Assembly (NCBI GenBank): GCA_023150375.1
Contig: JAKLLA010000020.1
Coordinates: 13,389 to 77,388, forward strand
Direction: 5' to 3'
Length of the DNA stretch: 64,000 nt
Source of the DNA: Burkholderiaceae bacterium
GTDB lineage: Bacteria; Pseudomonadota; Gammaproteobacteria; Burkholderiales; Burkholderiaceae_C
The position numbers were made by a program, and so were the translations under genes. The notes beneath the pieces are model-generated. The model had not been told where the DNA came from and ran no database searches. It saw nothing but the letters and a program-made list of their open reading frames with translations. Numbering within the stretch: the first letter of the stretch is position 1; each line of letters opens with the position of its first letter. This document shows positions 15,825-37,371 of the stretch, in pieces.

Positions 15825-18800
15825 ATGACGATTCCACACGACACCCTCTGGCAGACCAAGCTGCATGCCCGTCTGCACGATCCGGCCGAGAAGGCGCTGG
15901 TGCTGCTGCGCGACCCCGAGGGGCACGAGGGCGGCAGCTCGCGCGCCTTGCACCGACTGATGGGCTTCCAGCGCATCGATGCGGCCAACATCGACCCCGA
16001 CAACGACGAGGTGCTGCACCGCGCCCTGTTCAAGCAGGGTATTCCGGCCGCGATGTACCAGACGGTCAAGCGCGCCGACTGGTGGGCCGCCGCGGCCGAC
16101 CGCCCGCAGTGGCCGATGCAGGAGATCACCGTCACCACGAAGAAGGGGGAGCAGAAGACGCTGAAGGTCGCGCCCGGCAGCCAGGTGCGCTGGGCCAAGG
16201 AGCCGGTGCTGATCCACCCGCTCACCGGGGCCGAGTACCACCTCGGCGGCCTGCGCGACACCGAGCTGGACGACCTGAAGTCACGCTGCTTCGAGCACAC
16301 CGCCGCGCTGATCCAGCGTCGCCCCGACGGCGAGGTCGACTGGACCCGCACCCTGTTCGCCCTCTGGCGCTTCGGCCCCGAGCTGAGCGAGGCGCAGGAC
16401 AACGGCACGCTGGGCGCCCTGTGGCCGCTGCTGCCGGCCGACACCCGCGTGCCCGACCACAGCATCTGGGATCACCTGGACCTGACCTCGGCCTTTGCCG
16501 GTGCGTTTGCCGCCGACCCGCAGGGCGAGGTGGCCCTGCTGACGCTGGCCATCGGGCCGGTGCAGAACTTCATCGCCGCGGCGCGCAGCACCTCCGACCT
16601 GTGGGCGGGTTCGCACCTGCTGGCCCGGCTGGCCTGGGAGGCCATGAAGCCGGTGTGCGAGGCGCTCGGCCCGGATGCCATCCTCTTCCCGCGCCTGCGC
16701 GGCGTGCCGCAGGTGGACGCCTGGCTGCGCGACGACCTGGGGCTGCCCGCCCGGCTGTTCGACGGCGCCCCCTGGACCGGCAAGGCCACCGACGCCAACC
16801 CGCTGTTTGCCGCCGCGCTGCCCAACCGCTTCGTGGCGCTGGTGCCGGCCTCCCGGGCGCGTGAGCTGGCCTTCCAGGTGGAGCGCGCGGTGCGCGGCTG
16901 GCTGCAGGCCCAGGGCCAGACCGTGGTGGACCGCCTGCTCCAGGAAGCGGGCCTGGACGCCGGGCGTGACAGCCATGCGCACCGCCAGATGCGCCAGCAG
17001 CTCGAAGGGTTCCCCGAGGTGCACTGGGCCGCGGTGCCCTTCTCGCTGATCCAGCCGCGCAACGCAGAGAAGCAGACCGACCTGGACACCCGCGCCCTCA
17101 GCGCCGCGATGGCGCCGTTCTTCGGCGTGCCGCCGGGCCAGCCCTGCGGCTTCCTGACCTCCAAGGCCTGGGAAGTGCTGCAGAAGAGCGTGCGCTGGGA
17201 GGGCAACACCGTCTTCTTCGACCCCAACCCCGGTGCGCTCTACCCGGCGGTGCACGATCTGGCCGAGCGCGCCCTGGCCGCCGCCAAGGCGGTGCGGCCA
17301 TTCCAGCAGCAGCCGCAGGCGGGCTGGCGCTGCTCGCTGACCGGCGAGACGGAGTGGCTCACCACCGACCCGGCCCATCTGCAGCTGCCGCCTGGGCAGC
17401 GCAAGGACACCCTGTGGACGATCATCGCCCGCAAGCGCCCGGCCTGGGCCAAGAAGGGTGAGCACCTGGGCGCGCTGCCGGCCCTCAAACGCCTGTGGCC
17501 GCAGTTGTTTGCCGAGGAGGTCGGCAAGCGGGTGGGGGACGCTGAATCCGGCCGCAGCGCGCGGCGCTTCGTGGTGTCCACCCACACCATGTCGCTGGCC
17601 CACCAGCTCGACCAGTGGCTGGAACGTGGTGCGATCACGCCGCCGGACCTGGACCGCGCCCTGGACGATCACGGTGGCGAGACCGTGGCGCTGCCACGCA
17701 GGCTCATGCGCAAGCACGCGCGACAGGTCGGTGCGCTCGACGATGCGCGCCGCCTGCCGGCGCTGCTGGATGCGGCCGACCAACTGGACGACGAGTCCGC
17801 CGCGCGCGATCTGCAGGGCCTGGTGCGGCGCACGCTCGGGCGCGATGCTGGCCGGCTGGAGACCTACTACTCGCTGCTGCTGATGGACGGCGACCGCATG
17901 GGCGCCTGGCTGGCCGGCGGCGACCAGTACGCCATTCCCTATCGCGAGAGCTTCCACCCGCAGACCCGTGCCGGCTTCGAGCAGCATGCCGAGCGCGAGC
18001 CGACGCTGCGCGCCTACGGCCGGCAGCCGCGCGCCGTGTCGCCCAACCGCCACCTGTCGATCTCCGCGGCGCTGAACGACTTCTCGCTCACCGTCGTGCC
18101 GCATGTGGTGGAAGAGGAGTTCCTGGGCCGGCTGATCTACGCCGGTGGCGACGATGTGCTGGCCATGCTGCCGGTGGCCGACCTGCTGCCGGCGATGCAG
18201 CGCCTGCGCCTGGCTTACGCCGGGCACGACCCGGCACATGAGCTGGGCGAACGTGACCGCCAGGGGCTGACCCTGCACCGCGGCTTCGCCATGCTGCGCC
18301 AGGGCCCCCGCATGCGGCTGATGCGCATGATGGGCCACAAGGCCACGGCCAGCGCCGGCGGCGTCATCGCCCACCACCAGGCGCCGCTGGGCGCGGTGCT
18401 GCGCGAGCTGCGTGCTGCCGAGAGCCGCGCCAAGAACGCCGGTGGGCGCAATGCCTTCAGCCTCACCGTGGTCAAGCGCTCGGGCGGCGCGCTCACCGTC
18501 ACCGCCAAGTGGGGTGAGCCGGTGGCCCTGCTGGACGCGCTGCGCCGCTGGCTGGGGCAGGACGGCGTCTCGCGCCGTGCGGTCTACAACAGCCTGGACT
18601 GGATCAAGGACCTGCCGCAGGACGACCCGGCCATGCTGGCGTCGCTGCTGAGCTACCAGTTGCAGCGCCAGGCCCAAGGCGACGAGGCCAGGGCCCAGGC
18701 GCCTGAGCTGGCCCGGCGCCTGGCGGCGCTGGCCTTCGACGACGCCCTGCGGCCTGCGCCAGGCTCCAAGGACAAGCGCCTGGACTGGCTGGCCCACTTC

Positions 18801-18851
18801 ATGGGCGTCGCGGAGTTCCTGGCCCGCGAAACCCGCAGCGCCGACCGATGA
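15825..18851 (+). CDS. cas10: Cas10/Cmr2, type III-B large subunit
   Basis: 1008 aa. N-terminal HD-type motif (KLHARLHDPAEKALVLL), the Palm/cyclase motif LIYAGGDDVLAMLP, and its position between cmr1 and cmr3. Confidence 0.92.
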   Translation: MTIPHDTLWQTKLHARLHDPAEKALVLLRDPEGHEGGSSRALHRLMGFQRIDAANIDPDNDEVLHRALFKQGIPAAMYQTVKRADWWAAAADRPQWPMQEITVTTKKGEQKTLKVAPGSQVRWAKEPVLIHPLTGAEYHLGGLRDTELDDLKSRCFEHTAALIQRRPDGEVDWTRTLFALWRFGPELSEAQDNGTLGALWPLLPADTRVPDHSIWDHLDLTSAFAGAFAADPQGEVALLTLAIGPVQNFIAAARSTSDLWAGSHLLARLAWEAMKPVCEALGPDAILFPRLRGVPQVDAWLRDDLGLPARLFDGAPWTGKATDANPLFAAALPNRFVALVPASRARELAFQVERAVRGWLQAQGQTVVDRLLQEAGLDAGRDSHAHRQMRQQLEGFPEVHWAAVPFSLIQPRNAEKQTDLDTRALSAAMAPFFGVPPGQPCGFLTSKAWEVLQKSVRWEGNTVFFDPNPGALYPAVHDLAERALAAAKAVRPFQQQPQAGWRCSLTGETEWLTTDPAHLQLPPGQRKDTLWTIIARKRPAWAKKGEHLGALPALKRLWPQLFAEEVGKRVGDAESGRSARRFVVSTHTMSLAHQLDQWLERGAITPPDLDRALDDHGGETVALPRRLMRKHARQVGALDDARRLPALLDAADQLDDESAARDLQGLVRRTLGRDAGRLETYYSLLLMDGDRMGAWLAGGDQYAIPYRESFHPQTRAGFEQHAEREPTLRAYGRQPRAVSPNRHLSISAALNDFSLTVVPHVVEEEFLGRLIYAGGDDVLAMLPVADLLPAMQRLRLAYAGHDPAHELGERDRQGLTLHRGFAMLRQGPRMRLMRMMGHKATASAGGVIAHHQAPLGAVLRELRAAESRAKNAGGRNAFSLTVVKRSGGALTVTAKWGEPVALLDALRRWLGQDGVSRRAVYNSLDWIKDLPQDDPAMLASLLSYQLQRQAQGDEARAQAPELARRLAALAFDDALRPAPGSKDKRLDWLAHFMGVAEFLARETRSADR

Positions 18852-23260: not shown

Positions 23261-24430
23261 ATGACACTGTCAGACGACTTCGATTGTGGAGTGGTATCGA
23301 CCGAGCCGCAACCCACCGCGGCCGCGTCTCTTCGCGGTGATCTGCCGGTGGTGGCGCAGCCCCTGCCGACCACGCTCCCCCTCACCCGCCTGCGCCTGAC
23401 CGCCATCGCCCAGGCCGACCTGCCGCTGCCCGACTACGCCGGCTCGCTGCTGCGCGGCGCTTTCGGTGCCGCCCTGCGCCGCGGCGCCTGCATGACCGGT
23501 TTGACGCAGTGCCGCGACTGTGCGCTGTGGCGCAGCTGTCCCTACCCGGCGGTGTTCGAGACGCCGCCGGCGCCCACCCAGTTCGGCCAGCAGTTCAGCG
23601 CCGTGCCCAACCCCTACGTGATCGAGCCGCCGCCCATCGGCCTGCGCCGTGTGGCGGCCGGGCAGCCGCTGGTGTTCCACCTCGTGCTCTTCGGCGAGGC
23701 CACGCTGCGCCAGCTGCCGTTGATCGTGCACGCCTGGCAGCGCGCGCTGCGCCACGGGCTGGGGCGCGAACGCATCGGCAGCGAGCTGGTGGAGGTGGCG
23801 GCCGTCCTGCCCGCAGCGGCGGGCGGTGACGAGCGGATCCCGGTCTGGGATGCCGAGAGTGCCCGTGTCCAGTCGCAGTCGTTGGCGCAGACGGCGCTGC
23901 CGTGGCCGAACCAGGCGCCGGCCGGGCTCACCCAGCTGACCCTGCAGATCCACACCCCCCTGCGCCTGCAGCACGACGGCCACGCACTCGGGCCAGGCGA
24001 GTTGAGCCTGCGCACCCTGCTCGCCCAGTTGCTGCGCCGGCTGAATCTGGTGCTGGACCTGCACTGCGGCATCCGGCCCGCCCCCTTCGACGCGCCGGCC
24101 CTGCTGGCCGCCGCCGAAGCCGGTCTGCGCGACGACCGCAGCGGCCTGCAGTGGCAGGACTGGCGGCGCTACTCCGCCCGCCAGCGCCAGGAGATGACCC
24201 TGGGCGGCGTGCTCGGCCGCTGGACGCTCAGCGGCGACAGCGCCGTGCTGGCGCAGCTCTGGCCCTGGCTCTGGCTGGGCCAGTGGCTGCACCTGGGCAA
24301 GAACGCGACGATGGGGATGGGCGGCTATCGCCTGGCTTGGGGCGCCGACGGGCCGGTCCCCGATTTGCCTGCCTGCATGAAAGAATCCATCACCTCAACG
24401 GCGCAAGCGCGCAAGGAGCCGGCATGCTGA
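23261..24430 (+). CDS. cas6: Cas6-family pre-crRNA endoribonuclease (DUF2276/PF10040-like RAMP)
   Basis: The ATG at 23261 follows AGGAGGG. It has a Cys cluster (CMTGLTQCRDCALWRSCPYPAVFE), NPYVIEPP, and a C-terminal G-rich loop (HLGKNATMGMGGYRL). The longer track ORF 22835..24430 runs antisense through the TA pair. Confidence 0.8.
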   Translation: MTLSDDFDCGVVSTEPQPTAAASLRGDLPVVAQPLPTTLPLTRLRLTAIAQADLPLPDYAGSLLRGAFGAALRRGACMTGLTQCRDCALWRSCPYPAVFETPPAPTQFGQQFSAVPNPYVIEPPPIGLRRVAAGQPLVFHLVLFGEATLRQLPLIVHAWQRALRHGLGRERIGSELVEVAAVLPAAAGGDERIPVWDAESARVQSQSLAQTALPWPNQAPAGLTQLTLQIHTPLRLQHDGHALGPGELSLRTLLAQLLRRLNLVLDLHCGIRPAPFDAPALLAAAEAGLRDDRSGLQWQDWRRYSARQRQEMTLGGVLGRWTLSGDSAVLAQLWPWLWLGQWLHLGKNATMGMGGYRLAWGADGPVPDLPACMKESITSTAQARKEPAC

Positions 24431-24741
24431 CCCAGCAGGTGATCGACCAGGCGGTGCGGGTTCTGGCCGATGCGGCCCAACCGCGCAGCATCGTGTTGTT
24501 CGGCTCGCACGCGAGGGGTGAGGCACGAGCCGACTCGGATCTCGACCTGCTCGTGGTCGAAGACGAGGTCCATGATCGGGCCGGCGAGATGGTCAGGCTG
24601 CGACGCGCCCTGCGGCCGCTGCGCATTCCGGTGGACATCCTGGTGGCCTCGGTGGCGGAGGTGGAAAGCCGCCGTGTGCAGCCTGGCCACGTGCTGTACT
24701 GGGCGATGCAGGAAGGGCGGGAGGTCTATGCCGGATCCTGA
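24424..24741 (+). CDS. nucleotidyltransferase-domain protein (MNT-type antitoxin)
   Basis: MLTQQVIDQAVRVLADAAQPRSIVLFGSHARGEARADSDLDLLVV is the GSxxRGxxxxxSDxDL minimal-NTase motif. The ATG overlaps the cas6 3' end by 7 nt. Confidence 0.85.
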   Translation: MLTQQVIDQAVRVLADAAQPRSIVLFGSHARGEARADSDLDLLVVEDEVHDRAGEMVRLRRALRPLRIPVDILVASVAEVESRRVQPGHVLYWAMQEGREVYAGS

Positions 24742-25120
24742 CTTTGCCGAGCAGTTGCTGACGGCTGCCGAGCGTGACCTGACGGTCTGGCGAAAGCTGG
24801 TGAACGATGCCGATGTGCATGACGCCGTGCTCGGGTTCCATGCCCAGCAGGCGGTGGAAAAGCTGCTGAAGGCGGTGCTGGCCCGGGCTGGCGTGGTCTT
24901 TCGCCGTACCCACGATCTCGCGGAGTTGCTGGACGTCCTGCATGACGCCGGCCTGCCGGATCCGCCGCATGCCGAGCGGCTCGATGAGCTGAACCCCTTT
25001 GCCGTCGAGGCTCGCTACGGCATGGGGGGAGAGGGGTCGCTGATGCGTGAAGAGGTGGGGCGCTGGCTCGATGCGCTGTGGGCATGGGCACTGGCTCAGG
25101 TCCGTGGCGACGCCTGCTGA
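24728..25120 (+). CDS. HEPN-domain protein (partner of MNT)
   Basis: LLTAAERDLTVWRKL...HAQQAVEKLLKAVLARAGVVFRRTHDLAELL is the HEPN (PF05168-like) pattern with the R..THDL motif. It overlaps the MNT 3' end by 14 nt. Confidence 0.85.
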   Translation: MPDPDFAEQLLTAAERDLTVWRKLVNDADVHDAVLGFHAQQAVEKLLKAVLARAGVVFRRTHDLAELLDVLHDAGLPDPPHAERLDELNPFAVEARYGMGGEGSLMREEVGRWLDALWAWALAQVRGDAC

Positions 25121-25440
25121 TGCCGATGAGCCGCACCTTCTTCCTCTCCCGCCACCCCGGCGCCATCGAATGGGCACGCCGCCAGGGACTGGGGGTCGAC
25201 CAGTGGCTGGCGCACCTGGACGTGGCGCAGGTGCAGCCGGGCGACACCGTGATCGGCACCCTGCCCATCCACCTGGCCGCGCAGGTCTGCGCGCGCGGTG
25301 GGCGTTACCTGCACCTGAGCCTGGATGTGCCGCCGCAGTGGCGCGGGCGGGAGCTGACGGCCGATGAGCTGGAGGCGGCGGGGGCGCGGCTGGAGGGATT
25401 CACAGTGACTTCGATGCATGAGGAAGAGGGCCATGCCTGA
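25120..25440 (+). CDS. csx16: Csx16 (VVA1548-family) CRISPR-associated protein
   Basis: MSRTFFLSRHPGAIEWARRQGLGVD...VQPGDTVIGTLPIHLAAQVCARGGRYLHLSLDVPPQWRGRELTADEL matches my memory of the Cas_VVA1548 consensus. The start is either 25120 (overlapping the HEPN TGA) or 25126. Confidence 0.65.
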   Translation: MPMSRTFFLSRHPGAIEWARRQGLGVDQWLAHLDVAQVQPGDTVIGTLPIHLAAQVCARGGRYLHLSLDVPPQWRGRELTADELEAAGARLEGFTVTSMHEEEGHA

Positions 25441-26584
25441 CAAAGAGAATCACCAGCGGGTGGTGCATGTGTGCATCGCCACCGGCCAGAACGCGGCGAA
25501 CCTGATCCCACTGGAACAGTACGACGCGCGGGAGGTCTGGATCCTGCAGACACCGACGATGCGCGCCAACGCCGCCAATCTGGCGCAGGCGCTCAAGAAG
25601 GAGGGACGCCAGATCGAGCGCATCGACTTCGATGACAGCAGCCCTCGGCAGCTGGAGACCAGCGCCGAAGCCGTTGCACACCGCCTCGATGGCTGCCACG
25701 TGGTGCTGCACGCAACCGGAGGGACCAAGCTGATGGTCCTGGCCCTGCGCGACGGTTTGCGGCTGGTCGAGGCGGGCAGTGGCACGCTGGAGATCCTCTA
25801 TGCGGAAACCAGCAAGCAGCAGATCGACTGGCTCGGGCATGCGCCGCGGACCGATGCCATGGCCGACGTGCTGGATCTGCGGCTGGCGCTGCTGGTTCAG
25901 GGCTATCGCATCGAAGGGGACAGCCGGCACGCAGCGGCGCAGCAGCGTGCGGCCACGCGTGCCGGCGTGACGCGCGAGATGGGCGAAAACGCCGGGCGTT
26001 ACCGGGGCTCCCTCAGTGCGCTGGCGGGTCGTGCCCGGCGGGCCGCCGACGGCGGGCAGGAACGCGATCTGGTTCAGCACTTCGAGTACGCGCCGGGCGG
26101 GGCACTGGGGCAGCTCCTCGCCAAGGCCGCTCATCACGGGCTGGTCGACTGGGATGGCGGTGAGACGGTCCGTTTCACCAGTCGGGAGGTGGCCGAGTAC
26201 TTTGCGGGCGGCTGGATCGAGGAATTCGTCCTGCTCAAGCTCACCGGCGGCCTCGTGAAGCCGGGGCGCTTCAGCAGCAACCTGCGTGTGCTGTCGGTGG
26301 ACAAGAACGTCCCGAACGAAATCGACGCGATCGTCATCCACCGCAACCGGGTGCTGCTCATCGAATGCAAATCCGGAAAGCAGAGCCGCGCCCAGGATGC
26401 GCTGTACAAGCTGGCTCAGCTGCGCCAGCAGCTCGGCGGCAGCGTCGCCTCGGCCCTGTACCTGAGCGCCCAGCGCGTGGATGAGCAGGTGCTGCAGCGC
26501 GCGGCCGAATACCGCATCGATGTACTGTGCGCCGATGAGGTCGCGAAGTTCGTTCCCTGGCTGCGGGACTGGTTGGAGCGCTGA
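25433..26584 (+). CDS. Card1/Can2-type cOA-activated effector (CARF + PD-(D/E)xK nuclease)
   Basis: N-terminal CARF with VVLHATGGTKLM. C-terminal nuclease motifs GGWIEEFV and NEIDAIVIHRNRVLLIECKSGK (D...ExK). The ATG overlaps the csx16 stop. Confidence 0.8.
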   Translation: MPDKENHQRVVHVCIATGQNAANLIPLEQYDAREVWILQTPTMRANAANLAQALKKEGRQIERIDFDDSSPRQLETSAEAVAHRLDGCHVVLHATGGTKLMVLALRDGLRLVEAGSGTLEILYAETSKQQIDWLGHAPRTDAMADVLDLRLALLVQGYRIEGDSRHAAAQQRAATRAGVTREMGENAGRYRGSLSALAGRARRAADGGQERDLVQHFEYAPGGALGQLLAKAAHHGLVDWDGGETVRFTSREVAEYFAGGWIEEFVLLKLTGGLVKPGRFSSNLRVLSVDKNVPNEIDAIVIHRNRVLLIECKSGKQSRAQDALYKLAQLRQQLGGSVASALYLSAQRVDEQVLQRAAEYRIDVLCADEVAKFVPWLRDWLER

Positions 26585-26619: not shown

Positions 26620-26774
26620 GCCCGCCCCCGCGTACGCCGCAGCGCACCGGGATAGACCGCGCCGCGGTGAAGACGCCTGATGGAGGCCGCCTTTCGGTGG
26701 GCGACCGGTGGGTCGAGGGCCTGGAGGTGAAGGGATGGAGAGTCGACTAGCGACAGAATCGGGTCGTACCGGAT
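26620..26774 (+). repeat. decayed copy of the cas2-like 3' end plus CRISPR leader
   Basis: By eye, gcccgcccccgcgtacgccgcagcgcaccgggaTAGACCGCgccgcggtgaagacgcc aligns with gcccgccgccgcgtgcgccgcagcgccctggcgTAGACTGCacagcggtgacgacccc at 33057-33114. About 27 of 33 nt match before the TAG and about 20 of 25 after it. A gaggccgc block follows, then the similarity fades. Confidence 0.45.
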
Positions 26775-26950
26775 ATCTGGACAATGCCCTGTTTTCCAAG
26801 GGATTGAGACCTGGGGTTGACAAAGACGATGGACTTTTTCATCGCGGCTGAACCGATTCCCTGCTTTGGAAGGGATTGAGGCTGGAGTTTGATCTGGTTC
26901 TTGATCAACGTGTGGCCTGAGCCGATGCCCTGTTTCGAAGGGATCAATGG
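26775..26950 (+). CRISPR. degenerate 3-repeat remnant CRISPR array
   Basis: Three units: atctggacaatgccctgttttccaagggattgagac (26775-26810), ggctgaaccgattccctgctttggaagggattgaggc (26846-26882) and gcctgagccgatgccctgtttcgaagggatcaatgg (26915-26950). They are separated by 35-nt and 32-nt spacers of lower GC. The units resemble the array-2 variant (aaCcg). Confidence 0.6.
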
Positions 26951-27019
26951 TTGCAGGGGGCTCCGATCCCACCGCGTCAACGTTGACGCGGCACGGCGCC
27001 GAAGCGGTCGGCAAACAGA

Positions 27020-27277
27020 ATGGCTGCATTGCAGGACAACCGAAGCAACGCAGCCATGCACAGCACCAACAGCACCCAGACCCGTTCCTCCACGCAGCGT
27101 CGGCGCGACGCTGCGGTCGTGGCGCCGATTGCGCCTGTCGTGAAGGCCGTGGACCTCGGGCCCGGCAAGGCGGGAGTCGTCGTGGCGGCCGGCGCGATGC
27201 TGGTCGGCGGACCGCTCGCGCTCGGACTGGGGGCGGCCTGGGGCGCCTGGCGGCTCTGGAAGGGTGGCCGCGACTGA
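27020..27277 (+). CDS. small membrane protein (C-terminal glycine-zipper TM helix)
   Basis: 85 aa, or 73 aa from the ATG at 27056. It has GC3-rich codons and a polar N-terminal part, then GKAGVVVAAGAMLVGGPLALGLGAAWGAWRLWKGGRD. There is no clear SD, and the start is uncertain. Confidence 0.5.
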   Translation: MAALQDNRSNAAMHSTNSTQTRSSTQRRRDAAVVAPIAPVVKAVDLGPGKAGVVVAAGAMLVGGPLALGLGAAWGAWRLWKGGRD

Positions 27278-27336
27278 TCCGTCGCACCCCGGCGGTTCAC
27301 GACCCAGACACACGACCATCACGACAGGGAGGATCC

Positions 27337-28185
27337 ATGCAGAAGACGCAGCCACCGCAGAAACCCGGCACGCACGCCAGCCACATCGGCAGCTCGGCCA
27401 AGGCCGCCTACGAGTCCACGGTGATTCATCGTGCGATGCGTCGGGCCGGCGGCAATCCGCAGCTCAAGGGGCACATCCATGAGGTGCTGCTGCAGGACCG
27501 CATGAACCTGCGCAACGTGGCGAAGCTTTCGGGTCAACGCACCGCGCTGACCCAGAGCAGCAATGCGCCGGTGGTGGATCTGGTCACGCAGCGTGGCGGC
27601 AAGGTGGTCGAGCGGCTGCAGGTCAAGGACACGGTTTCCCCGGGTGCAGTCCAGAAACTGGTGCGGCAGGTGGCGGACGGCAAGTACCGCAGCGCCCGGA
27701 TCGTGGGCAGCGAGGAAACGGCGCGTGCAGCCAATCGGGCGTTGGAGACGGCCGGGCTGAGCAAGCGGGTCAGCAGTTCGGGCATCAGCTCGCGCACCAC
27801 GACCAGCCTGGCGCAGCGGGCCGGGGCGGCAGGCTCGGGCACGCTGGGCTCGGCGACGCTGCGTGCGGCGCAGTCCGGCGGCGCTGCCGGGGCGGCACTG
27901 GGTGCCGGGGTGGAGCTGGTGCGGGGTGTGTCGGACCTGATGGACGGCCGGCGCGATGTGGCCGATGTCGGCCTGTCGGTGGCCAAGGCCGGCGCCAAGG
28001 GCTACGCCACCGGTGCGGCGGCCAGTGCGGCGGCCACCGCGGGCGGTGCGGCCGTGACCAGTGGCCTGGCGGCCGTGGGTGCGGGGGCCGGTCTGAGCGC
28101 AGCGGCTGCGGTGGCGGCACCGCTGGTGATTGCCGTCGGGGTCGGCTGGGCGGCTGCGAGCCTCTGGGATGCGCTGTTCGACTGA
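27337..28185 (+). CDS. hypothetical protein: about 130-aa globular N-domain (possible PD-(D/E)xK-like fold) plus Gly/Ala-rich glycine-zipper/TM C-terminal half
   Basis: The ATG at 27337 lies 6 nt after GGGAGGA. The N-domain carries GHIHEVLLQDRMN ... APVVDLVTQRGGKVVERLQVKD ... AVQKLVRQV ... ARIVG. The C-half is GAAGAALGAGVELV ... GGAAVTSGLAAVGAGAGLSAAAAVAAPLVIAVGVGWAAASLWDALFD. The upstream part of track ORF 26947..28185 looks non-coding. Confidence 0.7.
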   Translation: MQKTQPPQKPGTHASHIGSSAKAAYESTVIHRAMRRAGGNPQLKGHIHEVLLQDRMNLRNVAKLSGQRTALTQSSNAPVVDLVTQRGGKVVERLQVKDTVSPGAVQKLVRQVADGKYRSARIVGSEETARAANRALETAGLSKRVSSSGISSRTTTSLAQRAGAAGSGTLGSATLRAAQSGGAAGAALGAGVELVRGVSDLMDGRRDVADVGLSVAKAGAKGYATGAAASAAATAGGAAVTSGLAAVGAGAGLSAAAAVAAPLVIAVGVGWAAASLWDALFD

Positions 28186-28277
28186 TCCGCGCGCACCGGC
28201 TGGGGCTATCGTTCACGCAGGCGTACGGCTCTGTCCCGGAGCCGTGTACCGCCATCGCCGCGTAGCCCCCTGCCGTC

Positions 28278-29468
28278 ATGAACCGAGATCCTTTCCTCTG
28301 CGAGCGCCGCGTTCTGGCCTGCGTCTGCGGCATGTCGCCTGCCGTCGTGACCGAGACCCTGTACGCGCTGGTGACGCAGCAGGACTTCGTTCCGGATGAA
28401 GTTCATGTGATTACCACCACGCAGGGGCGCGCTCGGGTGCTGCGGGACCTGCTGGGGGTGGGGGAGGCCGGCGGGACGGCGGCTTTCGAACATTTCGTCC
28501 AGGCCTACCTGCCCGGGCGTCGGCCGCGCTTCGGCACCGACTGCGTGCATGTGCTCGGCCAAGGCAACGGTGACGGTGACCGTGAGGGGCTGTCCGACAT
28601 CCGCAGCGACGATGACAACCGCAGGGCTGCCGACACTGTCTATCGCGTTCTGCGGGCACTGAAGGACCTTCCGGGAACCCGGCTGCACGCGTCGGTGGCC
28701 GGCGGCCGCAAGAGTATGAGCTTCTACATGGGGCACGCGTTCTCGCTGGTCGCCGAGCCCGGTGACCAGCTCAGCCATGTGCTGGTCGACCCCCCTTTCG
28801 AAGACCGGGTGCCGGACTTCTACTTTCCGACGCCTGAGTCGCAGTTGCTGCCGCTCTGGCAGCACGGCCAGGTGGTCGGCACGGTCGACGCGCAACTGGC
28901 GCAGGTGCGGCTGGCCGAGCTGTCCGTCCTGAAGTTGGGCGGGCTGCTGGCGAACCTGCCGGCCAAGGCGCGGGAGCGCTTCGATCTGGCTGTGTGCATT
29001 GCGCAGGCCACGATGCTGCCGCCTCAGGTTCGGCTGGTCTGGAGCGTCCAGGCCGAGCGGGGCCATGTCGACATGCTGGGTGAGCGCATCGACCTGTCGC
29101 GTCAGCAGTTCGCGGTGCTGCTGCTGCATGCATTGGTCCGATCTCACGAGACGGAGCTGCCCGGCGGTGCAGGGCTGATCGTCGAAGACTTGCCCGCCGG
29201 GCTTCTCGAGGAGATCGGCGGTCAGTCCGTCAGGGCGAGCAGTTTCAAGTCCGTGCGCTCGAAGATTCGCGCGCTGGCCCAGGCGCAGGTCGGGCCGGCA
29301 GCCGACTGGCTGCTGATCGAAGCGGTGGGCGAACGCCGGCGCGAAGAAGAACGACCACAGGCGCTGCGATTGCCGGCCCATTGCCTGACGCTGGTGGGCG
29401 TTCCCAACACGTGGTGGCAATCGTTGCGGCGAGTCCTGCTCACCCAGCGCAGCAGCGTGGCGGATTGA
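28278..29468 (+). CDS. CRISPR-associated CARF-domain protein, NE0113-like, paralogue 2
   Basis: It shares family motifs with 12854..14149: RRVLACVCGMSPAVVTETLYAL, EVHVITTTQG, HASVAGGRKSMSFYMGHAFSLVAEPGDQLSHVLVDPPFED. Confidence 0.75.
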   Translation: MNRDPFLCERRVLACVCGMSPAVVTETLYALVTQQDFVPDEVHVITTTQGRARVLRDLLGVGEAGGTAAFEHFVQAYLPGRRPRFGTDCVHVLGQGNGDGDREGLSDIRSDDDNRRAADTVYRVLRALKDLPGTRLHASVAGGRKSMSFYMGHAFSLVAEPGDQLSHVLVDPPFEDRVPDFYFPTPESQLLPLWQHGQVVGTVDAQLAQVRLAELSVLKLGGLLANLPAKARERFDLAVCIAQATMLPPQVRLVWSVQAERGHVDMLGERIDLSRQQFAVLLLHALVRSHETELPGGAGLIVEDLPAGLLEEIGGQSVRASSFKSVRSKIRALAQAQVGPAADWLLIEAVGERRREEERPQALRLPAHCLTLVGVPNTWWQSLRRVLLTQRSSVAD

Positions 29469-29574: not shown

Positions 29575-29961
29575 TCACCACAGCCGCCGCACCCCGAACT
29601 GATCCAGCGCCGCATCGCAACTCACCAGCACGGCGTCCTCGATCTCGGCTTGCGCGGCCAGCATGCGGTCGAAGGGGTCGCGGTGCTCAGCGGGGTGGTA
29701 GCCGGCGAGCATGGCGTGCTCCAGGGTGATGGCCAGTAGTTCGAAGCCGCTGGCGGACACCTGCCGGGTGAAGGGCGCTGCCTCGGCGGGTACGCCGGAC
29801 AGGTGGCCGCGACGCTGCTTGATCGCAATCTCCCAGGCACTGGCAACGCTGACGAGAACGACACTGTCGGCGTCGGCCATGGCGTGTCGTGCGGCGTTGC
29901 TCAGTCTCGGGCTGTCAGCCCACCACCAGAGCAGCGCATGGGTGTCGAGCAGCAGCCTCAA
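29575..29961 (-). CDS. vapC: PIN-domain toxin VapC
   Basis: MRLLLDTHALLWWWADSPRLS...SVASAWEIAIK...HRDPFDRMLAAQA is the classic VapC pattern. It has a 4-nt overlap with the upstream antitoxin gene. Confidence 0.85.
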   Translation of the reverse strand: MRLLLDTHALLWWWADSPRLSNAARHAMADADSVVLVSVASAWEIAIKQRRGHLSGVPAEAAPFTRQVSASGFELLAITLEHAMLAGYHPAEHRDPFDRMLAAQAEIEDAVLVSCDAALDQFGVRRLW

Positions 29962-30200
29962 CGCCCGCCCTCCCAGTCGGCGAGATCCTCTTCGGACATG
30001 GGGTCGAAGAAGCTGTCATCCAGCACGATGCCAGGGAGGGCGCCGGGTTTGCGTGCCTTCTTCGGCGCATCCAACGGTACCAGCCTCGCATAGGGCTTGC
30101 CTGCCTTGGCCAGCACGATCTCCTCGCCGGCATGAGCCCGTTCGAGCAACCGCGAGAAGTGGGTTTTGGCTTCGTGAACGTTGATCACGGTCTGGGCCAT
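29958..30200 (-). CDS. Phd/YefM-family antitoxin
   Basis: MAQTVINVHEAKTHFSRLLERAHAGEEIVLAKAGKPYARLVPL is the Phd/YefM N-terminal signature. Confidence 0.85.
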   Translation of the reverse strand: MAQTVINVHEAKTHFSRLLERAHAGEEIVLAKAGKPYARLVPLDAPKKARKPGALPGIVLDDSFFDPMSEEDLADWEGGR

Positions 30201-30355: not shown

Positions 30356-30643
30356 ATGTCCAGCCTCTCCCGCCACCTCTACCTCGCCGCCTACGACATC
30401 GGTGACGACCGCCGCCGCATCGGGGCGCTGAAGCTGCTGCGTGCCTATGCCACCGGCGGGCAGAAGTCGGTGCACGAGGTCTGGCTGACCGACGGCGACA
30501 AGCGCAGCGTGCTGGCCGACATGGCCTACATCCTCGACGTGCAGGACCGCTTCGCGCTGATCCGGCTCGACCCGCGCAGCGCGCCGCGCATCATCGGCCG
30601 GGCCCAGCCGCCGGCCGACCCGGACTACTTCTACATCGGCTGA
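30356..30643 (+). CDS. cas2: Cas2
   Basis: 95 aa. HLYLAAYDIGDDRRRIGALKLLRAYATGGQKSVHEVWL has the Cas2 ferredoxin-fold pattern with the YDI Asp. Confidence 0.85.
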   Translation: MSSLSRHLYLAAYDIGDDRRRIGALKLLRAYATGGQKSVHEVWLTDGDKRSVLADMAYILDVQDRFALIRLDPRSAPRIIGRAQPPADPDYFYIG

Positions 30644-30657
30644 GGAGGCCCTGCCCC

Positions 30658-31674
30658 ATGTCCACCCTGCTGCTCGACCGTGCCGGCCTCGAAGTGCGCC
30701 GCGACGGCAACGCCCTGGCGCTGTACGAAGCGGGCGAGCGCCGCGGCAGCGTGCCGCTGGCGCTGCTCGAGCGCTGCGTCATCCAGGGCGTGCAGACCCG
30801 GCTGGACTCGGGCGTGCTGCTCGCCCTGGCCGAGGCCGGCGTGACCACCGTGCTGTTCAGCCCGCGTGCCGGTCGCCGCGTGGCCACCGTGCTCGGTCCG
30901 GCGCACAACGACGCCGCCGTGCGCCTGGCCCAGGCGCTGCGCTGCGCCGATGCCCCCTGGTGCGCGCAGTGGGCCCGCGAGCTGGTGCGCGCCAAGCTGG
31001 CCCGGCAGCGCCGCGTGCTGCGGCAGTGGCTGGCGGCCCGGCCGGATGCCCGCAAGCCGCTGGCCGACGCCCTGGCTGCGGTGGACGCTGCGCTGCAGCG
31101 CCTGGCCGATGCGGCGGCGCAGCCGGACAGCGCGCCCGACGCCGCGGCGCTGCGTGGCATCGAAGGCGCGGCCGCGCGCGCCCACTTCGCCGGGCTGGCG
31201 GCCGTGCTGCCGCCCGCGCTGGGCTTTGCCGGGCGCAACCGCCGCCCGCCGCGCGACCCGGCCAACGTCTGCCTGTCGCTGGGCTACAGCCTGCTGCATG
31301 TCGAGGCCGTGCAGGCCTGCTGGATGCGCGGGCTGGACCCGCTGCTGGGCTTCTACCACCGCCCCGCCTTCGGCCGCGAGTCGCTGGCCAGCGACCTGAT
31401 CGAGCCGCTGCGCGCCGCGGTGGACCTCTGGGCCTGGGAGCTGCTGCGCAGCCGCCGCCTGCGCGAGGAGCACTTCAGCTTCGACCGCGGCGCCTGCCTG
31501 CTCGGCAAGGCCGGCCGCAGCATCTTCTACGCCGCCTGGGCCGGCGACGTGCCGCCGCTGCGCCGCTGGCTGCGCCTGCGCGCCGCAGCCCTGGCCCGCC
31601 AGCTGCGTGGCGAAGGCCTGGCCTGGGTGGACGCCGACCCCGACGACGAGGAAGCCGTGCCCGCCGGCCCCTGA
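30658..31674 (+). CDS. cas1: Cas1 integrase
   Basis: 338 aa. N-terminal beta domain, then LRGIEGAAARAHF (Glu), NVCLSLGYSLL, and GLDPLLGFYHRPAFGRESLASDLIEPLR (His and acidic residues). This is the full Cas1 catalytic set. Confidence 0.9.
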   Translation: MSTLLLDRAGLEVRRDGNALALYEAGERRGSVPLALLERCVIQGVQTRLDSGVLLALAEAGVTTVLFSPRAGRRVATVLGPAHNDAAVRLAQALRCADAPWCAQWARELVRAKLARQRRVLRQWLAARPDARKPLADALAAVDAALQRLADAAAQPDSAPDAAALRGIEGAAARAHFAGLAAVLPPALGFAGRNRRPPRDPANVCLSLGYSLLHVEAVQACWMRGLDPLLGFYHRPAFGRESLASDLIEPLRAAVDLWAWELLRSRRLREEHFSFDRGACLLGKAGRSIFYAAWAGDVPPLRRWLRLRAAALARQLRGEGLAWVDADPDDEEAVPAGP

Positions 31675-31808: not shown

Positions 31809-32696
31809 ATGCACACCCCGCCCCGCGACGGCCTCCCCCGTGACCCTGCCCGCAGCCCTGCCGCGGCCGGTGCATCGGGCTGGGCGTCGGCCGGCGGCGG
31901 GCCGCTACGGCGCGGGCCGTTGCCGCGCGCGGCCGACGCCCGCACCCTCTACCTGGCCGCCGCGGAGCGCCTGCGCGTCACCTCCACCGGTGAGGCCCTG
32001 GTGATCGGCCGGCCCGATGCGCCGCATCTGGGCGCGCAGCGCATTCCCGTGGCGCGGGTGCTGCGCATCGTCTGCGGCGACAGCGCCGAATGGAGCGGCG
32101 CCGCGCTGGCGCTGTGCCAGCAGCGCGGCATCACCATCACCTGGCTGAACGGCCGCGGCGAAGCTGCCGGCCACCTCTGGCCCGAACGCCCGCGCCGGGT
32201 CGACCTGGCCGATGCGCTGAACGTGCTGGCCGCCGACGACCCAGGCTGGAGCGATGCCTACCGCCACTGGCTGCGCCACCAGCGCCTGGCCGTGCTGCAG
32301 ACCTGGCAGGCCGAGCGCGGCGCGGCCGGCCAGCCTGTGCGCGAGGCCGAGTGGCAGGAAGCCAAGCGCCGCTGGGTCTACCGCGACGAGCCGCCCGAGC
32401 TGCTGCCCGCCCTGCTGCACGGACTGGCCGCCGCGCTGGTCACGCACCGCCTGAGCGAATGCGGCCTGCTGCCGCACTACTGGTGCTGCGTCGGCGAGCC
32501 GGTCGAACTGGCGCACGACCTGACCCGCCTGATCTGGGCCGAGATGAACTACTGCGCCGGCCCCCTGGCCGCTGCCGTCGACCAGCCGCGCGAGGCCGCC
32601 GCCATCTTCGAGCGCTGGAGCGGCCGCTGCGTCGGCGCCCTGCACCAGCACCTGGCCAACCTGCGCGCGCATGCGCTGCGCGAGCTGGCCTGCTGA
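31809..32696 (+). CDS. divergent Cas1-like protein (probably lacking the catalytic His/Glu)
   Basis: TLYLAAAERLRVTSTGEALVI...RIPVARVLRIVCGDSAEWSGAALALCQQRGITITWLNGRGEAAGHLWP parallels the Cas1 N-domain. CGLLPHYWCCVGEPVELAHDLTRLIW aligns by eye with GLDPLLGFYHRPAFGRESLASDLIEPLR, but His and Glu are replaced. The N-terminal 45 aa are low-complexity, so the true start may be further downstream. Confidence 0.6.
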   Translation: MHTPPRDGLPRDPARSPAAAGASGWASAGGGPLRRGPLPRAADARTLYLAAAERLRVTSTGEALVIGRPDAPHLGAQRIPVARVLRIVCGDSAEWSGAALALCQQRGITITWLNGRGEAAGHLWPERPRRVDLADALNVLAADDPGWSDAYRHWLRHQRLAVLQTWQAERGAAGQPVREAEWQEAKRRWVYRDEPPELLPALLHGLAAALVTHRLSECGLLPHYWCCVGEPVELAHDLTRLIWAEMNYCAGPLAAAVDQPREAAAIFERWSGRCVGALHQHLANLRAHALRELAC

Positions 32697-32750: not shown

Positions 32751-33092
32751 ATGAGCCTGCACGAGAAGACCCGCTGGATCGTCACCTACGACATCCACGA
32801 CCCGCGCTGCGGCGTCAAGGTGCACCGCCTGCTCGAGGGCTGGGGCCTGCCGCTGCAGTACAGCGTCTTCGTCGTGCCGGCCAGCGCGGCCGAACTGCAG
32901 CAGCTGATGCAGGCGCTGGAAGAGCTGATCGACCCCGTCACCGACGACGTGCGCGCCTACCGCTGGCCCGAACAGGCCGAGGTGCACCTGCTCGGCCGCC
33001 CCCTGCTGCCCGACGAGGTGCTGCTCGGCCCCCCGGCAAAAAACCCCGCCGCCCCCGCCCGCCGCCGCGTGCGCCGCAGCGCCCTGGCGTAG
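32751..33092 (+). CDS. second Cas2-like protein
   Basis: TRWIVTYDIHDPRCGVKVHRLLEGWGLPLQYSVFVVPASAAELQQLMQALEELIDPVTDDVRAYRW is the Cas2 pattern (YDI ... Q.SVF ... D.vR.Y). Its TAG stop is the first triplet of the conserved leader block. Confidence 0.75.
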   Translation: MSLHEKTRWIVTYDIHDPRCGVKVHRLLEGWGLPLQYSVFVVPASAAELQQLMQALEELIDPVTDDVRAYRWPEQAEVHLLGRPLLPDEVLLGPPAKNPAAPARRRVRRSALA

Positions 33093-33233: not shown

Positions 33234-36200
33234 GTCTGAACCGATGCCCTGTTTTCGAAGGGATTAAGACGCACTTGCCAGACTGGCAAGCGTCAGGGAG
33301 ATGTCTGAACCGATGCCCTGTTTTCGAAGGGATTAAGACAGAGCTGGCAGCCGGTGGACTCGCGGCGTCTGGCGTCTGAACCGATGCCCTGTTTTCGAAG
33401 GGATTAAGACACGGCGCGGCGCATGTTGTTTTCGATGCGTTCGGTCTGAACCGATGCCCTGTTTTCGAAGGGATTAAGACCGCACGGTGCTTGCGGTCTC
33501 GGGGCCGTCGTGCGGTCTGAACCGATGCCCTGTTTTCGAAGGGATTAAGACCGCGGCGGCGGCGGCCACCTTGGCGCGCCCCTTGGTCTGAACCGATGCC
33601 CTGTTTTCGAAGGGATTAAGACGTAACAAGACGCGCGGCGGCGGCGCTGGTGGCGGGTCTGAACCGATGCCCTGTTTTCGAAGGGATTAAGACGACTGGC
33701 AAGCGTCAGGGAGATGGAATCTTCACGGTCTGAACCGATGCCCTGTTTTCGAAGGGATTAAGACTCGGACGCGCCTTGCCCTTCGCCACGGCTTGTTGTC
33801 TGAACCGATGCCCTGTTTTCGAAGGGATTAAGACGAACCGCCTGACGCGCCTTCTTGGTTGCCTGAAGTCTGAACCGATGCCCTGTTTTCGAAGGGATTA
33901 AGACTCGCCTGACATCACGATGAAGCCTTCGTGGCCGGTCTGAACCGATGCCCTGTTTTCGAAGGGATTAAGACCCCCAGCATGACACTGACTTTGTGTT
34001 GCCCGTGCGTCTGAACCGATGCCCTGTTTTCGAAGGGATTAAGACGATGCGGGCGCCGCGGGTGTTCGTCGGGCCGTGGGTCTGAACCGATGCCCTGTTT
34101 TCGAAGGGATTAAGACAAGTCGCGCTTGGCGGAGAGGTAGGCGCGGAACTGTCTGAACCGATGCCCTGTTTTCGAAGGGATTAAGACTCGGGCGGTGGTA
34201 CTTCCTGCGCGGCTCTTCCTGTCTGAACCGATGCCCTGTTTTCGAAGGGATTAAGACCCGTCATCGCCGACGTACAGATCCACGGACCCGTGTCTGAACC
34301 GATGCCCTGTTTTCGAAGGGATTAAGACGCCGCCGACATACCGGGCCGACTCAATCAAGGGGGTCTGAACCGATGCCCTGTTTTCGAAGGGATTAAGACG
34401 TGGCCTTGGTGCACCAGCCAACAAGGCCGGCGGGTCTGAACCGATGCCCTGTTTTCGAAGGGATTAAGACTTCTCGGCGGCGGCGGTGGCCTTGGTGGCC
34501 TCGGTCTGAACCGATGCCCTGTTTTCGAAGGGATTAAGACGACATCAGCGGGGCCGCATCATCGTGGGTGGCTTGTCTGAACCGATGCCCTGTTTTCGAA
34601 GGGATTAAGACAACAAGGTGTCCACCATTGCTTTGGACAGCCGATGTCTGAACCGATGCCCTGTTTTCGAAGGGATTAAGACGCGTGGTAGGTTTCTTCC
34701 CCTTCCATCCGAACGGTCTGAACCGATGCCCTGTTTTCGAAGGGATTAAGACTCTTGTTCTAGCGCGCTGCAGCGCGCCCGGTAGTGTCTGAACCGATGC
34801 CCTGTTTTCGAAGGGATTAAGACGCAAGGCTAGCCAACGTCAACGAGATGGAATCTTGTCTGAACCGATGCCCTGTTTTCGAAGGGATTAAGACAAGGTA
34901 GCCATGCTGTGCCCATAGTTCTGGTTCGTCTGAACCGATGCCCTGTTTTCGAAGGGATTAAGACTAAAAGCGGCGTCTAGCTGGCTCTTGTCCAAGTCTG
35001 AACCGATGCCCTGTTTTCGAAGGGATTAAGACGCCAGACGATCCACAACGGTGAGATGTCCACCATGTCTGAACCGATGCCCTGTTTTCGAAGGGATTAA
35101 GACCAAGCTGCAGGCCCGGCCGGCGCCGGCCGACAGCGTCTGAACCGATGCCCTGTTTTCGAAGGGATTAAGACTCAGGGCCCGGTTCTGGGCCCGGATC
35201 TCGGCCAGGTCTGAACCGATGCCCTGTTTTCGAAGGGATTAAGACACCATCTTGACGACGTGCTTGTCGCAGTGGGCTGTCTGAACCGATGCCCTGTTTT
35301 CGAAGGGATTAAGACTTAACTATGCTGCCGCGATTCACGCCGCATAGGGTCTGAACCGATGCCCTGTTTTCGAAGGGATTAAGACGCCTTACCTTTCTCT
35401 TCAGCCGCCTTGCACGCCGTCTGAACCGATGCCCTGTTTTCGAAGGGATTAAGACGTCGATTTCCAGGCGCAGGCGGACGTTCGTTTCGTCTGAACCGAT
35501 GCCCTGTTTTCGAAGGGATTAAGACGATCGGCTCGGATCGCCCGCAGGGTCGCAATAAGTCTGAACCGATGCCCTGTTTTCGAAGGGATTAAGACTCTTC
35601 CTCGAGGCTGGCGCAACGGGCCTTGTAGGTCTGAACCGATGCCCTGTTTTCGAAGGGATTAAGACAATCCTCACGGTCGCCTTTTACGGCAGCGCGAAGG
35701 TCTGAACCGATGCCCTGTTTTCGAAGGGATTAAGACCAGGCCGCTTTCAGTGTTGCCAGTTCCTCTTCAAGTCTGAACCGATGCCCTGTTTTCGAAGGGA
35801 TTAAGACTGACCGTCGTCCCGTTCCTGGGCATGCTTCAGGTCTGAACCGATGCCCTGTTTTCGAAGGGATTAAGACCACGACCCCGGCCCTGGACGAGCG
35901 CTACCTGTCTGAACCGATGCCCTGTTTTCGAAGGGATTAAGACTGATCTGGACCATGTTGGCCTTGGTGTTGGGGATGTCTGAACCGATGCCCTGTTTTC
36001 GAAGGGATTAAGACTTGTTCGGACATGATGATGATGGTGAAGATGAAGGTCTGAACCGATGCCCTGTTTTCGAAGGGATTAAGACTCCAGTAGGCGATGT
36101 CACGGGCAGCTCCAGCCGCGTCTGAACCGATGCCCTGTTTTCGAAGGGATTAAGACTGGAATCTTCGCGATCATTCTTGACGGCAGCGCGGTCTGAACCG

Positions 36201-37274
36201 ATGCCCTGTTTTCGAAGGGATTAAGACGCTTGGAGGGTCAGGATGACCCGTCCCTGCAGGGTCTGAACCGATGCCCTGTTTTCGAAGGGATTAAGACCGC
36301 TGGAATTTGTACGTGCAACGATCCTCGTCCAGTCTGAACCGATGCCCTGTTTTCGAAGGGATTAAGACAAGTGAAATTCCATGTCATATCCGCCAGCCCG
36401 GTCTGAACCGATGCCCTGTTTTCGAAGGGATTAAGACGTCCATGTAGCGGATGCAGTGAATGCTGCATCAAGGTCTGAACCGATGCCCTGTTTTCGAAGG
36501 GATTAAGACCCATCCCCTTCCATCCTAGCCGTAGGCTACATGTCTGAACCGATGCCCTGTTTTCGAAGGGATTAAGACCACTCGGGTTTATTTTCTTTTG
36601 TTCGTGAATCGGTCTGAACCGATGCCCTGTTTTCGAAGGGATTAAGACAGGTATCGAAGACCTCCCCGATGAAGTCGGTCGTCTGAACCGATGCCCTGTT
36701 TTCGAAGGGATTAAGACAGTCGTCAAAATCCCAGTCGTCGGGGTTATACCGTCTGAACCGATGCCCTGTTTTCGAAGGGATTAAGACAGCATCGGGCACC
36801 TCAGGTGCACTGAGGCACTCAGTCTGAACCGATGCCCTGTTTTCGAAGGGATTAAGACTGTTGCGACGAAGCGGGAATAATCGCGAACCTTAGTCTGAAC
36901 CGATGCCCTGTTTTCGAAGGGATTAAGACGACAACGCCGGCACCCTGGCCCCGCCCAGCAGTCTGAACCGATGCCCTGTTTTCGAAGGGATTAAGACTGA
37001 TGTGGACGACGAAATCACCTGCTGCGATGTCTGAACCGATGCCCTGTTTTCGAAGGGATTAAGACGGGCCGTCTGCGCCTTCGCAGGCCAGCCCTTCGTC
37101 TGAACCGATGCCCTGTTTTCGAAGGGATTAAGACATGCCGCTGCTGCTGATGCTGTCGGCCAGCTCGGTCTGAACCGATGCCCTGTTTTCGAAGGGATTA
37201 AGACGGAAGACGTTTCGGCCCTGCGGGCATCGGGAGCGTCTGAACCGATGCCCTGTTTTCGAAGGGATTCAGAC
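33234..37274 (+). CRISPR. CRISPR array 2: 58 repeats and 57 spacers (hand count)
   Basis: The repeat is GTCTGAACCGATGCCCTGTTTTCGAAGGGATTAAGAC, the same as array 1 except T to C at repeat position 8 in every unit. The mean period is about 70 nt. The terminal unit (37238-37274) is degenerate (...gggattCagac). Confidence 0.97.
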
Positions 37275-37371
37275 CCGACGAGGTGAGCCGTGCACCGCGG
37301 ATCGCAAGGGGGCGAGGAGCCGGCAGCGCCGGTCGGCGCCCGGATGTGACGGCCGGGTGGCCCGGCGTGGT

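Follow-up and report, generated by a model that had tools for sequence, protein, structure and literature searches.

A family of predicted membrane-anchored, endonuclease-fold proteins as a candidate ancillary component of type III CRISPR-Cas

Introduction

To our knowledge, type III CRISPR-Cas has a growing number of ancillary effectors, nearly all of which carry a recognizable cyclic-nucleotide sensor. Here we describe a gene for a protein of 282 amino acids (aa) which is located within a type III-B locus, in a stretch of 64,000 nucleotides from a Burkholderiaceae bacterium (contig JAKLLA010000020.1, positions 13,389 to 77,388; this whole stretch is referred to as the window). The protein family is abundant, highly conserved and positioned beside type III-B systems in most well-sampled cases, yet it is devoid of such a sensor. 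The gene (27337..28185, + strand) is preceded by a small open reading frame (ORF; 27020..27277, +) and followed by a member of the NE0113 family, NE0113-2 (28278..29468, +). In agreement with an initial annotation of the window, the three genes are real, co-oriented and located between card1 and the adaptation genes; all are on the + strand.

Among the described systems the closest are Card1, Can2 and VC1899, in which a PD-(D/E)xK nuclease domain is fused to a CARF domain. The predicted nuclease domain of the 282-aa protein is of the same fold class, and all three proteins are among its top 20 Foldseek matches in the PDB. Card1 even occurs in the same kind of locus; in the window the two genes are 750 bp apart. 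In contrast to Card1, Can2 and VC1899, the 282-aa protein is without a CARF domain and has QxK instead of ExK in its motif. Further, it carries a predicted C-terminal glycine-zipper membrane region which Card1 does not possess, and a comparison of profiles showed no sequence relationship between the two.

A second group comprises Cam1, Csx23, CorA, Cam2/Cam3, Cap1 and Chp1. These are membrane proteins from type III loci, as is predicted for the 282-aa protein, and membrane perturbation in abortive infection is a plausible common denominator. In PMC11229360 they are described as a combination of mostly N-terminal transmembrane helices with a ligand-binding domain, i.e., a CARF domain, the C-terminal domain of Csx23, the cytosolic domain of CorA or a REC-like domain. 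The 282-aa protein, by contrast, combines a soluble part of predicted endonuclease fold, equipped with residues of catalytic type, with a putative membrane part, a Gly/Ala tail at the C-terminus. Neither PADLOC, which includes models for CRISPR-associated signalling proteins, nor Pfam assigned the 282-aa protein to a family of the Cam1/Csx23/CorA type.

In nucleases of the NucC/Cap4 type an endonuclease fold can be allosterically regulated by cyclic oligoadenylate (cOA). The endonuclease fold and the defence context are common features of these effectors (NucC is summarized in PMC11229360) and the 282-aa protein; it differs in that there is no sequence or structural match to NucC, no SAVED domain and a predicted membrane anchor. 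Finally, the repeated small-xxx-small motifs in its hydrophobic helices are reminiscent of glycine-zipper pore formers and small membrane toxins, and a few family members reach the Pfam model Gly-zipper_Omp. Tse4, Ssp6, TelE and VacA are proteins of this kind, to which the family may be likened.

Literature searches for glycine zippers or membrane nucleases in connection with type III CRISPR did not retrieve a description of the family, either as such or among Cam1-3, Csx23, CorA, Cap1 and Chp1. An effector screen left out loci which already had a known effector such as Can2/Card1 (Hoikkala, 2024; PMC11229360), and this exclusion may explain why the family was missed. A neighbourhood survey reported uncharacterized type III membrane families without identifiable soluble domains (bioRxiv 10.1101/270033), and the present family could be among them. 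We regard the family as a new candidate for an ancillary component of type III CRISPR-Cas; its architecture is unlike that of the characterized effectors. If it is an effector, a membrane-tethered nuclease architecture is added to type III defence, which raises the question of its trigger.

A large unnamed protein family

The start codon of the 282-aa gene at position 27337 is preceded, at a distance of 4 nt, by the Shine-Dalgarno sequence AGGGAGGA (27326..27333, +), which bears out the strong ribosome-binding site seen in the initial annotation. The protein has 261 homologues with 53-70% identity in Beta- and Gammaproteobacteria. A profile search found 347 clusters at 50% identity; for 131 of these the E-value is below 1e-30. 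The models of Pfam, NCBIfam, PADLOC and PHROGs contain no match to the 282-aa protein. When 110 diverse relatives were searched with Pfam, the N-terminal domain was covered in none of them, and scattered Gly-zipper and MamC-type low-complexity matches were the only result. Likewise, a sequence profile search of the PDB with the family returned compositional matches to the Gly/Ala region only. By its sequence the 282-aa protein is the founder of a large unnamed family and falls into no named Cas or ancillary family among the libraries searched. The earlier claim that neither of the two membrane proteins represents a known Cas or ancillary family stands for the 282-aa protein and the small ORF in the scans of the four libraries. 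Family members are absent from the plasmids in PLSDB; the phage records contained one partial match, on a phage-like contig.

The N-terminal domain

The initial annotation had suspected a PD-(D/E)xK-like core in the N-terminal half, marked by the segments H-E, VVDLV and ERLQVK. This suspicion was well placed. The structure was modelled with AlphaFold2 (AF2) from an alignment of 100 sequences; an alignment of the 22 close sequences alone resulted in a predicted local distance difference test (pLDDT) of 56, too poor for use. In the model, residues 21-165 have a pLDDT above 90 and form the succession helix-helix-strand-strand-strand-helix-strand-helix, with helices at 43-62 and 102-113 and strands at 68-71, 82-86, 89-97 and 121-124 as the alpha-beta-beta-beta-alpha-beta core. 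E49 is located in the second helix (43-62), D81 opens the second strand (82-86) and Q95-x-K97 is part of the third strand (89-97). As modelled, this arrangement of E49, D81 and Q95-x-K97 is the canonical PD-(D/E)xK layout. The QxK variant of the motif occurs in active enzymes, e.g., in HinP1I.

The same residues, which are contained in the three segments mentioned above, are those that are conserved. G45, E49, D81, K97 and Y117 are invariant across 110 diverse members, and Y25, R36, G38, D54, N57, Q95, D98, T125 and E127 are nearly so. In two further alignments Q95 is invariant (the alignments comprise 74-110 diverse members each).

Structural comparisons point in the same direction. A Foldseek search of the PDB ranked the restriction endonuclease EcoT38I first (E-value 2.4e-3, probability 0.99), and in a library of viral structures entries designated 'Restriction endonuclease', 'Nuclease' and VRR-NUC lead. 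The best E-values over the two libraries, 2.4e-3 and 8e-4, are modest and the template-modelling scores are low, because the query was the full-length model including its poorly predicted tail. No CARF or SAVED structure was matched by the domain itself. In sum, residues ~21-165 are modelled with confidence as a domain of restriction-endonuclease fold in which the catalytic-type signature E...D...QxK is intact.

In one family member (P0240, 568 aa) an N6_N4 DNA methyltransferase takes the place of the glycine-rich tail next to the endonuclease-like domain, which may reflect a real fusion or a merged gene call.

The predicted membrane tail and a small partner protein

The C-terminal half of the 282-aa protein, residues 166-282, consists of predicted helices rich in Gly and Ala and ends hydrophobic, as had been noted at the outset. 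Its glycines are conserved, e.g., G185 and G222 are invariant. Over residues 238-282 the Kyte-Doolittle mean in a 19-residue frame rises up to 2.11, and by hydropathy this segment can with good reason be regarded as a putative membrane tail. The Pfam model Gly-zipper_Omp is weakly touched by 5 of the 110 family members, the window protein not being one of them.

The small ORF codes for 85 aa or, from an alternative ATG at 27056, for 73 aa. The description of a protein of 73-85 aa ending in a single hydrophobic Gly/Ala helix proved accurate: the Kyte-Doolittle peak is 1.97 over residues 49-77, i.e., one transmembrane-like helix at the C-terminus. The small ORF evolves like a coding sequence. 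Its G+C content at third codon positions (GC3) is 0.84, similar to the neighbouring genes, compared to 0.57 in the upstream intergenic DNA. Two metagenomic contigs, 96-97% identical at the DNA level, differ from it in three nucleotides, all at third codon positions and with zero amino acid changes, and on both an independent gene caller annotated the 73-aa form.

A tblastn search of all collected loci with the small ORF yielded zero matches. A partner of related design is nevertheless seen elsewhere: in several loci the large gene is adjoined by a small gene whose product has homology only to the last 55-90 residues of the large protein. Such tail-copy partners are found downstream of the large gene in L008/L033, L022/L034 and L031, and upstream of it in Methylococcales (L004, L005 with two copies, and L009). 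Tail homology was detected for the partners in L008/L033, L022/L034, L031 and L009; they match positions 27901-28182 of the window with tblastn E-values of 9e-12, 2e-9, 7e-7 and 1.5e-4, and Smith-Waterman z-scores against composition-preserving shuffles reach 11.5. The small ORF shares the upstream position of some of these partners and their build, in which a single Gly/Ala helix comes after a polar N-terminus. Its similarity is marginal: by the same shuffling procedure it reaches z-scores of 2.9 (tail) and 5.2 (L033 partner). We regard the small ORF as a probable, diverged member of the class of tail-copy partners.

Genomic contexts of the family

Loci with a family gene were collected from complete genomes, species-representative genomes and metagenomes; after removal of near-duplicates 72 were left. 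They were screened with the Cas proteins of the window and a simple array finder, and are called CRISPR-linked when type III cas genes or arrays are present within 10 kb. Where the flank measured at least 8 kb (34 loci), type III cas genes or arrays were present in 20, a gene for a NUDIX-like 540-aa protein and/or an OST-HTH/DUF3825 protein in 8, and neither in 6. The respective numbers for all 72 loci are 31, 16 and 25, and in 19 of these 25 the flank is shorter than 8 kb. Not a single locus combines the type III and the NUDIX-like/DUF3825 context.

Given that a type III locus makes up much less than 1% of a genome, 20 of 34 is a very large excess. Measured against genome share, the family is strongly enriched beside type III CRISPR-Cas. 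A lack of enrichment near type III loci had been named in the initial annotation as an outcome that would refute it; the count of well-flanked loci disposes of that outcome.

In CRISPR-linked loci the cas genes or arrays are usually within 2 kb of the family gene, and the arrays have repeats of the same family, ending with ATTAAGAC. The loci stem from Burkholderiales, Rhodocyclales, Neisseriales, Methylococcales and Xanthomonadales. In addition there are two distant CRISPR-linked members, one adjoining cas1-cas2-cas10, the other in an operon of low G+C content together with csx1 and an NE0113 gene (L089). Place and orientation of the family gene vary: it is found after cas2, beside cas6 and on either side of the array. 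Such variable placement is the usual behaviour of an accessory gene.

Two loci merit a description of their own. The low-G+C type III operon in L089 (7479-12023) consists of csx1 (CARF-HEPN), NE0113, a family member of 352 aa, a 170-aa protein and a membrane protein of 157 aa; the 170-aa protein has, as judged by eye, an LRAT/NlpC-P60-like 'NCHQF' motif. In L035 (2637-6989), the locus of the closest homologue (70% identity), the family gene and an NE0113 gene are separated by genes on the other strand, which code for a PP2C phosphatase, a VWA protein and a kinase of 945 aa.

The second context is characterized by a protein of 540 aa that contains a NUDIX catalytic helix (REIEEELGL), by an OST-HTH/DUF3825 protein, or by both. 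Examples are L034 (11227-14090), L033 (15226-16860), L015 (6991-9757), L013 (92-3140) and L029 (8461-9678), and further L043, L045, L047, L050, L051, L059-L061, L063, L065 and L085. The cluster has no match in PADLOC or NCBIfam, and a literature search for DUF3825 found no description. The NUDIX-like 540-aa protein, the OST-HTH/DUF3825 protein and the family gene look like a conserved, undescribed cluster, possibly a defence system. The partnership flags it as a candidate for a new one.

A possible function of the cassette

Presently, we tentatively favour, at somewhat less than even confidence, that the 282-aa gene and the preceding small ORF constitute a membrane effector cassette which was recruited as an ancillary module to type III-B loci signalling with cyclic tetra-adenylate (cA4). 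According to its gene content the locus in the window can signal. Cas10/Cmr2 (15825..18851, +) has an intact GGDD cyclase motif, and Csx16 (Cas_VVA1548; 25078..25440, +; a library match) and Card1 (25418..26584, +), a CARF protein with PD-(D/E)xK nuclease domain and the known cA4 effector of the locus, are both encoded. The Csx16 family was shown to be a cA4-specific ring nuclease (PMC12409355). The presence of Csx16 together with Card1 marks the locus as one with cA4 signalling.

In this proposal the glycine-zipper tail would anchor the 282-aa protein in the inner membrane and support its oligomerization. The nuclease domain would face the cytoplasm, because the subfamily to which the window protein belongs is without a signal peptide. 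During infection the protein would act beside Card1 as a second effector localized at the membrane, where it may cut nucleic acid and/or permeabilize the membrane itself via its zipper helices. The outcome would be an arrest of the cell or destruction of the invader. The small tail-copy protein could join the assembly of tails and tune or block oligomerization in the manner of an immunity or antitoxin-like partner.

A number of observations weigh against this proposal, foremost among them the lack of a known sensor domain and a subfamily with signal peptides. As to the large protein, the confidence of the AF2 model is low over the C-terminal region. A comparison by hhalign of the family with a Card1 alignment including the nuclease domain showed no relationship; therefore, the nuclease assignment rests on predicted fold and motif, and not on membership in a specific family. 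A CARF, SAVED or other described cyclic-nucleotide-binding domain is absent from the 282-aa protein in the Pfam, NCBIfam and PADLOC searches, and from 110 members in Pfam. Sec-type signal peptides, in one member with a possible lipobox, precede the conserved domain in one subfamily (alignment A2, cluster 1; about 33 representative clusters, e.g., P0159, P0164, P0172 and P0239), whose composition is like that of Firmicutes. As predicted from these signal peptides, this implies an extracytoplasmic endonuclease-like domain in the subfamily, which is hard to fit with a universal cytoplasmic nuclease role. As to the small ORF, neither ATG is preceded by a recognizable Shine-Dalgarno sequence, and a hidden Markov model of the tail, run against the six-frame translation of the window, found the 282-aa gene only and missed the small ORF. 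As to context, about a quarter of the well-flanked loci have a non-CRISPR neighbourhood, and some distant members are in mobile elements or unremarkable regions. The loci already have Card1, so that immunity can be explained without another effector. We infer the effector role of the 282-aa protein, its trigger and its activity.

Alternative explanations

The main rival is an autonomous cassette of the defence-island or toxin-antitoxin-like kind, serving abortive infection, exclusion or addiction, which would be present in CRISPR loci only because these accumulate such modules, uncoupled from Cas10 signalling. We regard it as rather doubtful, and as the alternative to be taken most seriously. 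The locus in the window also hosts two pairs of toxin-antitoxin type, MNT/HEPN (24422-25120, +) and VapC(PIN)/Phd (29575-30200, - strand, between NE0113-2 and cas2). Family members occur in mobile elements and in islands with integrases, a relaxase, MqsRA and HEPN, the second conserved context is without cas genes, and the 282-aa protein is without a sensor domain. Further, a full-length protein accompanied by a tail-only paralogue resembles a toxin/immunity pair. However, the neighbours are not a random mixture of defence genes. Two recurrent and mutually exclusive contexts suggest functional coupling, and the close proximity to cas genes or arrays, usually less than 2 kb, is shared by members from several orders of proteobacteria and from at least one distant lineage.

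A bolder proposal starts from the second context. The family would be a new class of signal-responsive effector: by itself or aided by a partner, e.g., NE0113, the endonuclease-fold domain would be the sensor of a nucleotide signal, gating in response either a glycine-zipper pore or a membrane-localized nuclease. The same cassette would be shared between type III CRISPR-Cas and a still undescribed defence system of the NUDIX-like 540-aa protein and the OST-HTH/DUF3825 protein. We consider this unlikely, albeit worth keeping in mind: if true, the sharing of the cassette points to a second, undescribed nucleotide-based signalling pathway.

The initial annotation had treated all three genes as one module. 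In a developed form of this reading NE0113-2 would bind cOA and activate the membrane proteins directly or switch on their transcription; killing would be by pore formation, and the endonuclease-like domain would be regulatory only. The identification of NE0113-2 as a second NE0113-like CARF paralogue was correct. It is a full-length member of Cas_NE0113/TIGR02584 (CARF5 clade; NCBI name 'CRISPR-associated ring nuclease Csm6'), with an E-value of 6e-51 and 173 bits (cut-off 80.65) for TIGR02584, 1e-69 for the PADLOC model CARF5 and 111 bits (cut-off 23) for PF09623. A CARF domain of the CARF5 clade (residues ~10-230) is followed by a C-terminal domain of about 170 aa. With 40% identity over 292 aa it is a true paralogue of the first NE0113 protein of the locus, NE0113-1 (12815-14149), and it is unusual only as a second copy in one locus.

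A linkage of the three genes is favoured by several observations. NE0113 directly adjoins the family gene in the window, with a gap of 93 bp, and in the distant csx1-NE0113 operon L089, and is near in L020 and L021. CARF5-clade domains bind cA4 and cyclic hexa-adenylate (cA6) in Cad1 (PMC12825302). PADLOC contains a model 'CARF5--CARF_TM', i.e., fusions of CARF5 with membrane segments exist. Further, upstream of the small ORF, at a distance of 29 nt, there is a perfect palindrome of 20 bp, CCGCGTCAACGTTGACGCGG (26972..26991), unique in the window, which might serve as an operator or form an RNA hairpin. The region folds no better than shuffled sequences, and between 26500 and 29700 neither a sigma-70-like promoter nor a convincing terminator was found.

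These points are outweighed by the distribution of NE0113. The family has about 3,850 matches with a uniform architecture of 365-400 aa and is far commoner than the membrane family; among the top 120 NE0113 relatives zero have a fused membrane tail. The locus of the closest NE0113-2 orthologue examined (Sphaerotilus) has a Cmr system and is without the membrane gene. Most family loci are without an adjacent NE0113, and within 10 kb it is present in only about 7 of the 20 well-flanked CRISPR-linked loci. In addition, searches with the C-terminal domain of NE0113-2 brought up no DNA-binding family, and the invariant E, D and QxK residues argue for an enzymatic N-domain in the 282-aa protein. A conserved three-gene unit is not supported: NE0113-2 is a general component of type III-B loci and, in our reading, not part of the cassette. 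The adjacency in the window and in L089 keeps a functional link to NE0113 possible. As a mechanism, activation of the membrane proteins by NE0113-2 appears improbable.

The C-terminal part of NE0113-2 had given the impression of a winged helix. With zero matches in Pfam and the PDB this impression is unsupported.

Still less probable, in our view remotely so, is a function in adaptation, i.e., a PD-(D/E)xK nuclease which works with Cas1-Cas2 and processes prespacers like Cas4 in type III-B loci without Cas4. The gene does adjoin cas2 or cas1 directly in L004, L005, L009, L035, L042, L044, L075 and L032. Elsewhere, however, the nearest neighbour is cas6, an array or NE0113, and the non-CRISPR context has neither cas1 nor cas2. 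The 282-aa sequence is without a cysteine cluster of the Cas4 type, and for a membrane tail and a tail-copy partner no function in adaptation is apparent.

A degenerate mini-array is located between card1 and the small ORF (26774..26950, +); it consists of three decayed repeats of the locus (26774-26810, 26846-26882 and 26915-26950) and two spacers. The position of these repeats, directly upstream of the small membrane ORF, calls to mind CreTA: a crRNA-like RNA from the mini-array would guide the Cmr complex in repressing a toxin that acts on the membrane, and the cell would thereby be addicted to its CRISPR system. Such a circuit is unsupported because no spacer match longer than 10 nt exists in the window, and it deserves hardly any credence, given also that related loci have the gene in any orientation to full arrays or no array nearby. 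In the Methylococcales relatives a full, normal array is found in the same place after card1, so the simplest reading of the mini-array is that of a decayed remnant; it is probably what is left of the array which follows card1 in related loci.

The surrounding locus

The window has a G+C content of about 72% and contains a complete type III-B CRISPR-Cas system on the + strand. The order of genes is array 1, NE0113-1, cmr1, cas10/cmr2, cmr3-6, cas6, MNT/HEPN, csx16 and card1; after card1 follow the small ORF, the 282-aa gene, NE0113-2, vapC/phd, cas2-cas1, a second cas1-like gene with a cas2, and array 2. Between NE0113-1 and cmr1 there is an ORF of up to 252 aa (13965-14723) with a coding-like GC3, the real start of which is probably later; a Pfam search with it remained without a match.

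The adaptation modules are arranged in tandem. The first, cas2-cas1, occupies 30356-31674; it is followed by a divergent cas1-like gene (31809-32696), which has a weak match to Cas1 (E-value 8e-8), and by a second cas2 (32751-33092). Array 1 (9683-12472, about 39 repeats) and array 2 (33234-37275, about 57 repeats) flank the locus, and their 37-nt repeats differ by one base, GAATCG versus GAACCG.

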